A DNA stretch of 47,018 bases from a virus. Lineage: Duplodnaviria > Caudoviricetes. The position numbers were made by a program, and so were the translations under genes. The stretch lies in the IMG/VR virus record IMGVR_UViG_3300043478_000062, positions 1-47,018 of that record, one strand, 5' to 3'. Shown one piece after another: positions 10,945 to 20,805 of the stretch. The notes under the pieces are model-generated. The model ran no database searches, had not been told where the DNA came from, and saw only the letters and a list, made by a program, of their open reading frames with translations. The stretch's first letter is position 1, and every line of letters begins with the position of its first letter.

Positions 10945-13860
10945 TTAGTTCGGCCCGGAGAAGCCGTTCAGGCTTCCGTCCCAGGCGTTCACGGCGCCCT
11001 GCTGGAGCGCCATCTCGATATCCACGACCATCTGGCCCTCACGGTCCCGCTGGGACATGAACTCGCTGGCCTCGGAGTGCCAGCCGTCAAGGCCGTCCGC
11101 CATCAGCTCCCGGCAGCGGATCTCCACGAACCACGCGGCCATGACCGTGTCGGTCAGGCCCTTGGTCTCCGGAGTCCAGGCGCACAGCTGCTCCGCGAAG
11201 TTCCGCACCGGCTCGGACTGCGTCTGGGACGGCAGGCGGATCAGGTTCCGCTTCTCCTGCCAGCCGTCGAACAGCGTGGCCATCGAGGCCACGCCGAAAT
11301 CGGAATCCCACTTCTTCGCGTCGGTGGTGTGCGGGCCGATGAGCACGCCGCGGGCGTTCATGAAGTCCCGGATCAGGCGTTCCTGGACGATGGACGCCTG
11401 GTAGGCGTTCTTCTCGATCCGCCATTCCGAGACGCCGTAGCGCTCGGTGATACGGAACATCTCCTCCCGCAGCAGATGCGGCGGGAGCGCCTTCTTGTTC
11501 AGGACCTCCAGCACCCACCGCACCTTGGTCTGGCGGTCAAGACCCCAGACCTGGATGGCGGTATACCCGGCGGCGGCCGGGTCCAGACCGGCAATGACGG
11601 TCAGGCCCTCCATGCCGTACGGACGGTGGTCGGCCTGGCCCGGCATCAGCCGGCCGGGATAGCGGGCCCGGTCCACACAGCCCTGCACGTCCTCCTGCCT
11701 GAACGTGGAGTCGTCCGCCACCTGGTCCTGCATGTAGACCATGGACCAGTTCCGCGCCCGCATCTTGCGGCGCTTCCTGGCCAGGGCCTGCCCGTGCCAC
11801 ATCGGCCACATGCCCTCGCGGGGCCAGCCGCCGGCCTCGGCGATCTTGCGGCCCTTGATGGTCACCGGAGGCCGGTTGGTGACCGGCCACAGGGTTTTCC
11901 AGTCCTTCGGGTCGTCCGCGTACTCCAGCACTGCCGGCTGGGTCAGGTACGTCCAGGGAGACTCGCCGTCCACGTAGTACGAGGGCTTGAGGATCTCCGA
12001 ATACAGGTCCACCGTTTCCAGGCGGGTCCCGACCAGCAGCATGCGGCCCCCCGCGTCCGCGACGCGGGAGCCGACCTGGTTCTGGATCCAGTTGATCTGG
12101 CTGTCGTACTGCTGGTGGTTGGTGTGGTCTATGCAGTCGTCCATGATGGCCAGGTCGGTACGCGTGCCGTAGATGTGGCCGCCGATGCCGACGGCCTGCA
12201 CCGTGTAGGCGTGCTCCCCGGAGTCCGCGCCGTTGACGCGGATCTTCTCGGCGGCCCAGATGGCGTTCTCCGCCCAGCCGCCGATCGGGCCGAAGTCCCG
12301 CTGGAGATCCGCGTACCGCTCGTTCTCACTCAGGCGGTCCTTGATCGCCATCAGGAACCGCTTGGCCATGTCCTGGGTCTTGGAGATCAGCAGGATACGG
12401 ACGTTCGGATCCTGCACGATGCGCCACGTCACATAGTTGACCGTGAGGGTCGTGGACTTCCCGTTGCGGGTGCTGATCAGCGAGTCACCGACCAGATAGG
12501 TGTTGTCGTCCGACAGGACCGTCAGGCAGCGCACGCGGCCCTCTCCCGCGGGCTCGACGTTCTGGATCGCCAGGAAGTCGGTCCGGCGACTGCGCGCCCG
12601 GGTGAACTGGCGGCACGCTTTGCGTTCGAGCCTGAAGACTGAAGTCTCTGCGTCCGGCTTGAAGCTGATCTCCGTAACGCCGCTGTACGTCTTCATCCGC
12701 GGCTGGAACCCCAGCGATGCAACCAGGCGGAAGACCTGTCGGTTCAGCTCCACACGTCCGGCGTCCTGGCAGAAGCGGGCCCTGCCGTCCTTCGCCGTGA
12801 TCGTGCCGTCCGCATCCATCAGGCCACGCAGCAGCTCGAGCCGCTGCTCAATCGACGCAATTTCGTACGCGGCCGGTATGCGCTTGCAGTCCATCACCTC
12901 GAGCTTGCGCAGCGCGGTGCGCAGCCCGGCCGGATAGAGCGTGGCGTACGTGCCCCGTTCGTCTGTCGAGGTAACCGGATAACCCGCCTGTCCGAGGGCC
13001 TGCTCGAGGTTCGGACGGTCCTCGCTCGAGCAGGCAAAGCGGCTCCCGCCGGTCTCGCCGTCACCGAGCCAGTAGCCGAAGACATACGGATCGATCGGCA
13101 AGTCTACTGGCTTGCCCTCGAGCGGCGCCGCCTGGCGCACTCTCCACTTGAGCTGACCCGAGGGCGAACGGAGGTCGGCCATCAGTTCCGCCGTGGTCAT
13201 CTGCTTCTCGGGATGCCGCGCAGAGCGCTGCACGTTCCACTTGTGTGCCGCGTCGGTAGTCACCGAAGACCCGTTGCCGAACGTCACCCGAAAGACCGGG
13301 ACTTCGTCGTCCGGCTCCCATGTCCGCAGGATCGGGTACCAGCGCCCGTTCCGGTGTGGCAGCAGGTCGTCGTCGGTGACCTCTCCGATGGTCTTCCAGC
13401 CATCGGCGGTCAGAACCGGCGTGTCCACGGCCGGGCAGTGCTCGGGCGGGGTGTTCACCAGGAGCTGGTCCGCGTCCCCGCGCACGAAGCGCTGGGAGCT
13501 GTGCAGATCACGGGGCTCCCGCCCCTCCAGCAGGTCGTACCACTGGAGGTGGTGCCAGAACATTTTCGTGTCCAGGTACTTCTCGCAGAACTCCGGGAAG
13601 TCCGGGACTTCCTTGGACCCCGCGTCGTACCCCTGCGCGCGCTCGGTGAGCGCGGCCTCCGCCAGCCGGCGGAACTCGGGATCCTGGGCCTTGTAGTACG
13701 CGAAGGTGCTCGTGCCGCGCTCAGCGGCCTCACAGGCCCGCTTGACGGTCAGTCCGGACCTGATCCCGGCCAGCATCACGTCCTTGGCGTTCCGGGACGA
13801 CTTCACCGTACGGCGGCGGTCCCTGGAGTTCGTGGACCCGCCCACGATCTTGACTACCAC
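10945..13860 (-). CDS. terL: terminase large subunit with N-terminal TerS-like HTH and an intein (971 aa precursor, about 646 aa if spliced)
   Basis: Walker A PPEH|GKST split by an insertion; Walker B AIMDD; nuclease motifs IAGLDPA and TDTVMAAW. Confidence 0.93.
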   Translation of the reverse strand: MVVKIVGGSTNSRDRRRTVKSSRNAKDVMLAGIRSGLTVKRACEAAERGTSTFAYYKAQDPEFRRLAEAALTERAQGYDAGSKEVPDFPEFCEKYLDTKMFWHHLQWYDLLEGREPRDLHSSQRFVRGDADQLLVNTPPEHCPAVDTPVLTADGWKTIGEVTDDDLLPHRNGRWYPILRTWEPDDEVPVFRVTFGNGSSVTTDAAHKWNVQRSARHPEKQMTTAELMADLRSPSGQLKWRVRQAAPLEGKPVDLPIDPYVFGYWLGDGETGGSRFACSSEDRPNLEQALGQAGYPVTSTDERGTYATLYPAGLRTALRKLEVMDCKRIPAAYEIASIEQRLELLRGLMDADGTITAKDGRARFCQDAGRVELNRQVFRLVASLGFQPRMKTYSGVTEISFKPDAETSVFRLERKACRQFTRARSRRTDFLAIQNVEPAGEGRVRCLTVLSDDNTYLVGDSLISTRNGKSTTLTVNYVTWRIVQDPNVRILLISKTQDMAKRFLMAIKDRLSENERYADLQRDFGPIGGWAENAIWAAEKIRVNGADSGEHAYTVQAVGIGGHIYGTRTDLAIMDDCIDHTNHQQYDSQINWIQNQVGSRVADAGGRMLLVGTRLETVDLYSEILKPSYYVDGESPWTYLTQPAVLEYADDPKDWKTLWPVTNRPPVTIKGRKIAEAGGWPREGMWPMWHGQALARKRRKMRARNWSMVYMQDQVADDSTFRQEDVQGCVDRARYPGRLMPGQADHRPYGMEGLTVIAGLDPAAAGYTAIQVWGLDRQTKVRWVLEVLNKKALPPHLLREEMFRITERYGVSEWRIEKNAYQASIVQERLIRDFMNARGVLIGPHTTDAKKWDSDFGVASMATLFDGWQEKRNLIRLPSQTQSEPVRNFAEQLCAWTPETKGLTDTVMAAWFVEIRCRELMADGLDGWHSEASEFMSQRDREGQMVVDIEMALQQGAVNAWDGSLNGFSGPN
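12463..13437 (-). mobile_element. intein with LAGLIDADG homing endonuclease (325 aa, C142-N466)
   Basis: Block A CPAVDTPVLTADGW; block B TTDAAHKW; blocks C/E FGYWLGDG and LRGLMDADG; block F/G VRCLTV...LISTRN. Confidence 0.92.
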
Positions 13861-13895: not shown

Positions 13896-13932
13896 AGTCT
13901 ACGCTGAGGGACGACCCGGGAAGGGAGTCGCA

Positions 13933-14160
13933 GTGAAGGCCAAATTCGCCGGCAGCAGGTGCCCGCTCTGCCTCGGCGCAGTTGCCGTAGGCAGCGAGAT
14001 CGAGAAATTCATGGGGCGATGGGTGCACATCGCCTGCACGTCCGCCGAAGGGCGGACCTCGGTTCCCAGAGACTGGAAGTGGCGTGGAATTCGGATTCCG
14101 CAGGGCGGAAACCCCCAGACCGACCGCGGGAAAACTCGCGGCGGCCGCGGCGTGGCGTAG
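13933..14160 (+). CDS. small zinc-binding-like protein (75 aa, MKAKFAGSRCPLC...WVHIAC)
   Basis: GTG with AAGGGAG RBS; CxxC...HxxC; divergent from terL. Confidence 0.7.
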   Translation: MKAKFAGSRCPLCLGAVAVGSEIEKFMGRWVHIACTSAEGRTSVPRDWKWRGIRIPQGGNPQTDRGKTRGGRGVA

Positions 14161-15460
14161 GGGAGTTACCGGCGGTAACACCGGATAGACTGACTCCTGC
14201 CGGGTGAGCACGCTCCCCGGTCGCCGCCCCAGGAGGGCGACGTAGGCCGTCAGAGGGCGCCGCGTACGTGTGCCCGGGTTCAGCCGGGCCATCCACGAGC
14301 ACAGGGCGTCCGAAGGCAGGAGCGCCGTGGCGGACAGCAGTAAAGACCCTGTGTGCAGAGACCGCGCTATCCAGAAGTAATGCCCTGGATTCCCCCGAGC
14401 CAGGGGTCCCCATGCCCGCGCCGGCGCGCGGGACAGGGGCGCCCGGAGGCGCCCGGATATGACGGCCCCCCAGGGGCCGCACGGAATAGCGGCCAAGCCG
14501 CTGGAGGGTCTGGGCCACACCCTTAGGGGTGGACCAGTCCAGTCCAGGACCCGGGGGTTTAGCATCCCCGGGTCAAGATCGCGCCCATATGGGCGCTCAT
14601 ACGTACAGGGGAGCATGATCCCGCTCATACGAGCGGGATGTAAGGGGTCCTGGACTGGAGCGGGAGCGACAGCCAGGCCCAGCCCTGCACGTAGGTGCAG
14701 GTCAGAGCCCTGTCGCCCATAGTGTGTGCCCGGTAGGGGCACACACACGGGATGACCACACCAGTGGTCATCAGGTGAGCCTGCCCCTGACGGGCAGGCT
14801 CCTGGGGCATATGGATCATGTGCACACCACCGCCGCAGAGCGGTGGGCGTGCACCAGCTGGTCGGTGTGCAGGGCACACCTCCCGCCGTGTGTGCCTGCG
14901 GCACACCAGTGGCGAGCCTGACGGCTCGCCCAGGGGGGGGGATCGCTTGAGCGATCACCTCCCGGCTCAGGGAGCCAGCCCGGGAGGCTGGCATCCCTTT
15001 TCGCCGCAGGCTGTACCGCCAGCCCCTTGAGGGGCGTCGGCGGAAGGGGTGTCCCGGGGTCGGCTGGTGCCGACCCCTCTGCGCGTACGCGCGCGCGTGC
15101 GAGGCACTCGCGGCCCCGCCGCGCCCCGGCCCGCCAGAGGTTCCGGTGACCCCCGAACGCGTTCCGGAGCCCGGGCCGGGGGTCTGTATGACATACAGCC
15201 CCTCGCCCTCGGCTCGTGGACCCCGGTGGCGGGATCCTCTTCCCGCATGCGCGGGAGGGCTCCTGAGGGGCTCTCAGCCCCCTGCGGGGCAGGGGCGGGT
15301 GAGCCCAGGGGTTCCCGGCCGTACGGCCGTTGCGCATGTGCAGCCCTGCGAAGATCAAAAGCGTCAGAGATCTCGGAGGCTCTGCCCGGTCCGGGACGGC
15401 ACTTCCGTCCTGGTGCTTCACACACCCATGCGTGAACTCCCTGCTCAGGACAGGGCAGTT
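14161..15460. other. non-coding block densely packed with hairpins (structured RNA or genome-end/origin region)
   Basis: Many back-to-back 7-10 bp perfect stems plus a 15-bp long-range stem (14538-14552/14645-14659); no convincing ORF. Confidence 0.55.
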
Positions 15461-20728: not shown

Positions 20729-20805
20729 GCTCCCGTAGCTCAGCTGGTCAGAGCGCCGTCCTGATAAGGCGGAGGTGCCTGGTTCGAGCCCAGGCGGGAG
20801 TACCA
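20729..20805 (+). tRNA. tRNA-Ile(GAT)
   Basis: Acceptor GCTCCCG/CGGGAGT; D arm GCTC/GAGC; anticodon loop CTGATAA; GGTTCGAGCCC T-arm; encoded CCA. Confidence 0.93.

Follow-up and report, generated by a model that had tools for sequence, protein, structure and literature searches.

A Cys, Ser or Thr directly after the intein (the +1 residue) has been treated as common to the three intein classes, in which it is required for the block G branched intermediate (PMC5222942), and it limits both insertion sites and the junctions at which inteins serve as tools. Here, we describe an intein followed instead by Gly, which lies in the terminase gene of a tailed virus (Duplodnaviria; Caudoviricetes), IMG/VR record IMGVR_UViG_3300043478_000062, whose whole 47,018 nucleotides are called the window below. 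The closest described systems are the class-3 inteins, which give the top sequence matches and the best mini-intein structure matches (MP-Be DnaB, Msm DnaBi1 (6BS8), Mch DnaB1 (6RIX) and AceL NrdHF). The family of the window intein shares with them His B10, the triad of Trp B12, Cys F4 and Thr G5 (WCT), Asn G7, a residue 1 that probably need not be a nucleophile, and a phage terminase host. In contrast, known class-3 inteins need Ser/Thr/Cys+1 and fail with Ala+1, whereas the family has only Ala/Gly+1; it further has Ala where they have Leu at position 2, carries Trp40, Thr61 and Asn/Asp at F13, and in many members has Arg at G6. Type A bacterial intein-like (BIL) domains (C. thermocellum BIL, 2LWY; Tetrahymena BIL2) resemble the family in their HINT fold, the lack of a +1 nucleophile and a proposed amine attack on a thioester. 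However, BILs occupy hypervariable regions of non-conserved proteins (PMC7765530), use a residue-1 thioester and mostly cleave, whereas the family has an endonuclease, mobility, a site in a conserved catalytic motif, the WCT triad and possible Pro1. The actinophage Walker A terminase inteins TerL1-a and TerL1-b (Kelley 2016; Gosselin 2025) share the host function, the motif and a variable penultimate residue; however, TerL1-a lies between Lys and Thr, and the window site is two residues earlier, before Gly. The excerpts of these two studies (PMC5050341; bioRxiv 2025.01.02.630785) make no mention of an Ala/Gly+1 junction, and in the literature covered, which was mostly open-access and did not include InBase, we found no earlier account of homing inteins that form a family with Ala/Gly+1.

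Sequence comparisons place the window intein in a family of mobile, class-3-derived inteins inserted before the Gly/Ala of the Walker A motif in terminases of soil phages. The best-supported reading, with the balance modestly in its favor, is that these inteins ligate their exteins without a +1 side chain, a Cys F4 thioester being resolved by the +1 alpha-amine that Asn cyclization frees. The sequence-only reading from which we started had already offered non-canonical ligation as one possibility, and that possibility gains support beyond what the window alone could give because the junction proves to be a trait of the family, found in 27 of 27 full-length alleles. The features on which the argument draws are as follows.

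10945..13860, minus strand: terminase gene (phrog_38; open reading frame 13860-10945), 971-aa precursor with a TerS-like helix-turn-helix, ATPase and nuclease
13438..13860, minus strand: N-extein, residues 1-141, with the helical TerS-like region, ATPase strand 129-136 and the first half of Walker A (PPEH)
12463..13437, minus strand: intein, 325 aa, Cys142-Asn466, a class-3-derived HINT splicing domain with a LAGLIDADG endonuclease
13435..13437, minus strand: intein residue 1, Cys (precursor Cys142)
13318..13320, minus strand: Trp40, clade signature
13237..13257, minus strand: block B (HKW), with Thr61 (signature), Asp62 (B7), His65 (B10) and Trp67 (B12)
12592..13104, minus strand: predicted LAGLIDADG homing endonuclease domain, with Asp126 and Asp210 at catalytic positions, kept in 27/27 alleles
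12526..12528, minus strand: Cys304, block F4 (VRC), proposed acyl carrier
12484..12504, minus strand: Asn312, at the F13 His position, and Asp318
12463..12471, minus strand: block G, Thr323 (G5), Arg324 (G6) and Asn325 (G7), which are T464-R465-N466 of the precursor
12454..12462, minus strand: start of the C-extein, Gly+1 (GGG, 12462-12460; the Walker A Gly position), Lys+2 and Ser+3
10945..12462, minus strand: C-extein, residues 467-971, with the remaining ATPase and an RNase H-like nuclease

The insertion is in frame between the His and Gly of Walker A (PPEH, C142 ... T464-R465-N466, then G467-K-S-T), and every residue that the sequence-only reading named there is present: the junctions, the Gly codon, the penultimate Arg, HKW, VRC and Thr G5. 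Its range of 12460..13440 does contain the intein, but with one extein codon on each side, the intein proper being 13437-12463. Alignment with intein-free homologs confirms the junction, as the close relatives P0042 and P0046 read NTPPEH-GKSTTLTVNY at the same site. An AlphaFold model of the insertion (pLDDT 95.4) has a HINT plus LAGLIDADG intein fold and superimposes on class-3 Msm DnaBi1 (6bs8; Z 20.3, rmsd 1.4, 125 aligned) and Mch DnaB1 (6rix; Z 20.1), both of which begin opposite Cys142 and end opposite Asn466; the +1 Gly aligns with the Gly of the T7 gp19 Walker A, GIGKS. Several general marks of an intein are seen: an in-frame insertion in a conserved motif that homologs have without it, HINT blocks A, B, F and G in the predicted model, predicted endonuclease motifs, and a patchy, incongruent distribution. 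Neither Pfam nor NCBIfam gave a HINT match for the window intein. One sequencing run contained no joint across the intein, absence being something that contigs do not show. A sequencing error at the Gly codon is ruled out by a contig at word depth 48 across the stretch that shows no alternative letters (from a run that may be the source of the window and so is not independent), together with three other Gly+1 and 23 Ala+1 alleles. Likewise, Ser+3 is rejected as the true +1 residue, because the structure alignment stops at Asn466 and the spliced product would lack Gly-Lys. Ordinary inteins at a K|S site do exist in this terminase family (P0028, P0023).

The alleles were collected in three protein searches, a search with a profile, and scans of contigs; each search listed its best 80-150 matches, and the set is therefore a sample. 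At least 27 distinct full-length inteins occupy the PPxH site, with pairwise identities of 38-86%, and their +1 residue is Ala in 23 and Gly in four, including the window. The N|G junction for which the sequence-only reading suggested a search thus recurs in three relatives, the other 23 having Ala, and the possibility it raised that homologs all carry Cys/Ser/Thr there falls, as none of the 27 does. Among the matches listed, 613 distinct related intein C-termini are followed by Ser/Thr/Cys in 583 cases, Ala/Gly in 29 and Tyr in one, and all 29 Ala/Gly ends belong to the terminase Walker A site: 28 alleles with the derived splicing domain of the family, the 28th being the fragment P0024, and P0273. 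Intein-free alleles have Ala in 72, Gly in 14 and Ser in four cases at the same position (n=90). The single Tyr+1 case, a full-length class-3 intein in Streptosporangium sp. CA-135522 (L261:2995-4008), lacks a host reading frame on both sides and looks like an orphan remnant. No member was found among 712 cultured-phage records, where the best intein match was 35%, and the cluster BF-type Streptomyces phages examined (Dennebes, JXY1) have no inteins. One Ala+1 allele, annotated as a hypothetical protein (KJK12563.1), lies on a phage-sized contig of 45,488 bp in the Terrabacter sp. 28 record (contig9; L249/L082).

Within the family, the class-3 triad is in place (Trp B12 and Cys F4 in 27/27 alleles, Thr G5 in 25/27), and His B10 and the terminal Asn are likewise invariant. 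Residue 1 is Cys in 20 and Pro in seven, and nothing else; Pro requires four changes on the intein tree, and Cys1 is probably dispensable, given that these seven do without it. Comparison with 435 related inteins with Ser/Thr/Cys+1 brings out a clade signature, at positions within blocks A, B, F and G or close by: Trp40 (27/27 versus 16/435), Thr61 (26/27 versus 23/435), Ala at position 2, where Leu is found in 0/27 versus 365/435, Asn/Asp at F13 (25/27), where His is found in 0/27 versus 211/435, and Asp/Asn at 318 (27/27). The penultimate residue, G6, is Arg in 14, His in 12 and Gly in one. The missing penultimate His, which the sequence-only reading singled out, is in itself a common loss in phage inteins (PMC5050341), whereas the Arg is clade-specific, being found in 2/435 comparators. 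The co-occurrence of Cys1 with the WCT triad, given as another oddity, loses that standing: WCT inteins beginning with Cys/Ser are already in print, and 14/435 comparators have the combination. A Thermobifida intein with Cys1/Ser1 and WCT reportedly splices as class 1. The family itself departs from class 1, as Cys1 is present but B7 is Asp/Ser in place of the Thr of TxxH, and F4 is Cys; from classes 1-3 together in the +1 residue, Gly in the window and Ala/Gly throughout; and from type A BILs in lying at the terminase Walker A rather than in a hypervariable region of a non-conserved protein, although it shares with them a terminal Asn and the absence of a +1 nucleophile.

The splicing domains of the 27 alleles plus P0235 form one clade (support 95/90) in a tree of 108 columns with many open forks; the whole-intein tree is a quick tree. 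P0273 (residues 139-481), with Cys1, Trp B12, Gln F4 and Ala+1, branches apart from this clade with its sister P0151 (156-495), which has Cys1, Trp B12, Ser F4 and Ser+1; judging from its residues, P0273 may represent another loss of the +1 nucleophile, this one built on Cys1.

The site also houses splicing domains of the ordinary class-3 kind, in three alleles (P0012, P0022 and the fragment P0373), all with Ser+1. In the endonuclease tree P0012 and P0022 are mixed with the Ala/Gly alleles, whereas their splicing domains are ordinary class 3; by these comparisons P0012 (L090:2995-3963) and P0022 are chimeras that combine a splicing domain of the ordinary class-3 kind with an endonuclease of the Ala/Gly clade inside it, pointing to endonuclease swapping at one site. 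P0373 has Ser+1, whereas Ala/Gly is found in each of the 12 exteins closest to it, at 78-83% identity. Ordinary domains are thus paired with Ser+1 only and the derived domain with Ala/Gly+1 only, which suggests that the derived domain would ligate in another way. The Fisher test of the Ser contrast gives a nominal p of 0.0002, which overstates it, as the contrast consists of three alleles, two of them sisters; that the derived domain avoids Ser is not supported (0/28 versus 4/90, p 0.64). Ordinary class-3 inteins also occupy the same Walker A position in distant terminases (P0052, P0054, P0055, P0142, P0146, P0222 and L109), where PRH precedes and Ser/Thr-Lys-Ser follows the intein, and some of these start with Lys, Arg or Ile.

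The extein tree, with 31 intein-bearing alleles and the 30 that dereplication left of the 90 intein-free ones (61 rows), requires at least 12 gains or losses of the intein; five of 13 supported splits of the intein tree conflict with the extein tree, and intein-bearing and intein-free alleles occur together in one 90% cluster. L082/L331, the closest of the pairs with DNA, has a dN/dS of 0.06 and 0.17 in the two parts of the splicing domain; the endonuclease has 0.26 and the C-extein 0.09. By these measures the intein is mobile and under purifying selection, which makes both a sequencing error and a defective phage, the latter having been put forward in the sequence-only reading, unlikely for a family of this depth.

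In the proposed route, Cys304 (F4) would take over the N-extein in thioester linkage, cyclization of the terminal Asn325 would free the +1 amine, and the amine of Gly+1 would attack the Cys304 thioester, restoring PPEH-GKST. The signature residues may re-tune Asn cyclization so as to couple the steps without a branched ester at +1. The first step would be class-3-like and the last probably BIL-like, the family departing from each class in one defining property. Attack of a freed amine on a thioester, the aminolysis that the sequence-only reading borrowed from BIL domains, is thus favored, but with Cys F4 as the more likely carrier than Cys1, since the Pro1 alleles cannot make a residue-1 thioester. 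That ligation is needed at all is suggested by the single terminase of the genome, a cut that would fall inside the P-loop, and the Ser+1 of every ordinary domain at the site; the ligating routes taken together are strongly favored. There are precedents. In type A BIL domains the freed amine attacks a thioester and ligates, with cleavage dominating (PMC4031507). Class-3 branched intermediates go back to the linear precursor (PMC5222942), which on our reading would mean that an amine attacks the thioester at Cys F4. The T+1A mutant of MP-Be DnaB cleaves at both junctions without splicing (PMC2807308), so that both half-reactions run without a +1 nucleophile, yet uncoupled; and the Cys F4 sulfur can approach the +1 C-beta to within 3 A (PMC7664689).

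Several points weigh against this reading. No ligated product has been observed, the family being known here from sequences and models. In the class-3 inteins of the papers cited, +1 Ala abolishes splicing: it turns MP-Be DnaB to the double cleavage just described (PMC2807308), leaves the Msm, Mle and Bvi inteins as unreacted precursor (PMC5222942), and gives partial cleavage in AceL NrdHF (PMC7891396), an intein that lacks both His residues and nevertheless splices using Ser+1 (PMC7891396). The BIL precedent, too, yields mostly cleavage (PMC4031507). The signature may in part reflect the shared ancestry of a group with a single origin rather than adaptation, and the loss of His at both positions is not unique to it, the F13 His being kept in just 211 of the 435 comparators. 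As P0273 combines Ala+1 with Gln F4, either Cys F4 is not required by every Ala+1 allele or P0273 is dead. P0235 (448 aa, 44.6-kb contig), inside the clade, starts with Leu and ends in ...ETRG without a terminal Asn; it may be a frameshift, a dead allele or a natural split, and its DNA was not found in the viral contigs. All but one of the alleles come from assemblies and no carrier is a plaque-purified phage. Finally, in four more distant pairs dN/dS is 0.16-0.8, with dS near 1 and thus near saturation.

If the intein only excised itself by cleavage at both ends, leaving the terminase halves to act as a non-covalent pair, the identical invariant residues would be required; the Pro1 class-3 MP-Be intein with Ala+1 does cleave doubly, cleavage also dominates its P1C mutant (PMC2807308), and the P0235 protein stops directly after the intein. 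We nevertheless hold this to be unlikely. The break would interrupt the P-loop, with strand 129-136 of the model on one side and helix 143-158 on the other, and would put a carboxylate beside the phosphate site. Moreover, Ser+1 in all three ordinary class-3 domains at the site is not demanded by cleavage alone. The gene is split at the site in none of 82 intein-free loci (75 contiguous, six cut by contig ends and one with a deletion just after AKST), and none of the 16 inspected among 109 short matches starts at Walker A; a natural split of the gene at Walker A is rejected on these grounds, that of JXY1 lying elsewhere. The separate TerS-like and TerL-like products that the sequence-only reading envisaged gain no support in that form: the cut at 141/142 is not at the TerS-like boundary (residues 13-74) but between the ATPase strand and helix, so that the ATPase would be halved and no intact TerL freed. 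Persistence without splicing, as a dead terminase maintained by co-infection, an unprocessed intein or an inactive Lys+2 isopeptide, has parallels in the complementation-based persistence proposed for early class-3 inteins (PMC3196547) and in the Lys isopeptide ligation of BIL2 (PMC8616854), and would suit a family known almost entirely from assemblies, with no plaque-forming isolate. It is made highly improbable by the depth and diversity of the family, its intact frames and invariant catalytic residues, dN/dS in the closest pair of 0.09 for the C-extein and 0.06-0.17 for the splicing domain, and a circular genome with a single terminase, Lys+2 being the Walker A lysine.

The remaining alternatives ligate by other means. 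A relay through the Walker A hydroxyl, which would take the N-extein as an ester and pass it to the freed +1 amine by a long-range O-to-N shift, would keep the exteins covalently tied, and Ser or Thr+3 is present in 27/27 alleles. Yet Ser/Thr+3 is also present in 90/90 intein-free alleles, which were picked by a pattern that includes it, and being fixed by the host motif its conservation is uninformative for the relay; +3 is also two residues out of the Cys F4-to-+1 register, the shift would need an 11-membered ring, and we judge this route distinctly unlikely. The backbone nitrogen of an Asn-Gly pair is known to be reactive from deamidation. An imide route would exploit such reactivity: with the C-terminal junction still intact, the +1 nitrogen would attack the Cys F4 thioester, and the activated imide so formed would be resolved by Asn cyclization; the steps would be coupled, His F13 and His G6 (kept in 0/27 and 12/27) would be dispensable, and small +1 side chains would favor it. 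However, an amide nitrogen is a poor nucleophile, the small +1 residue is imposed by the host, and no intein precedent was found in the literature covered, which leaves this route very unlikely. The least probable alternative is that Cys1 alleles, the window included, follow the BIL type A route, with the Cys1 thioester attacked by the freed +1 amine and Cys F4 assisting: residue 1 is restricted to Cys or Pro, with Cys in 20/27, P0273 has Cys1 and Ala+1 without Cys F4, and BILs provide a precedent (PMC4031507), but the seven Pro1 alleles, in four places on the tree, cannot use Cys1, and Cys F4 and Trp B12 are invariant.

If ligation through Cys F4 and the freed amine is correct, Ala/Gly+1 splicing of an essential motor would overturn the +1 rule. 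We consider it fairly probable that the family is a fourth mechanistic class, of homing inteins that splice an essential enzyme efficiently via an internal Cys thioester and a freed alpha-amine, possibly reached twice (in the Cys F4 clade and P0273). Such inteins would show how aminolysis becomes efficient where BIL domains mostly cleave, and would be a starting point for protein ligation at Gly/Ala junctions and thus for a more flexible tool. The family holds its own controls, in Cys1/Pro1 and His/Arg G6 alleles and in the ordinary Ser+1 alleles that share its endonuclease, and one allele can be traced to the genome record of a strain with a name, Terrabacter sp. 28. Were cleavage the only outcome, a terminase functioning with a broken P-loop would be surprising too.

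The phage genome is circular, at about 46.9 kb, as judged from a terminal overlap, and its relatives are Beephvirinae Streptomyces phages, with 46-47% identity over the exteins. A second terminase copy is ruled out, as tblastn of the genome gave a single match; endolysin and portal genes lie downstream of the terminase. In a model of the intein-free P0042 (pLDDT 82.3, with terminase structure matches), the two ATPase elements that flank the intein site are the core strand (129-136) and the P-loop helix (143-158). Terminase residues 13-74 (window 13641-13824, minus strand) are helical and weakly match small-terminase families, and a TerS-like domain seems from this match to be fused to TerL in this phage group. 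Upstream of the terminase, a stretch of some 1.5 kb (window 13900-15400) contains no convincing long gene; as related cultured phages have their terminase start at 600-750 bp from the end of the genome, this region may hold the genome terminus. The L078 terminase has in-frame TAG codons at positions 28 and 84 of its N-terminal part in an otherwise intact gene, which may reflect a pseudogene, an error or recoding, and that of Streptomyces phage JXY1 (L333:490-2464) is annotated as two genes, the break being frameshifts near residues 320-355 that are possibly sequencing errors. A single tRNA call, tRNA-Ile(GAT), lies at window 20729-20805 on the plus strand, opposite to most long open reading frames.

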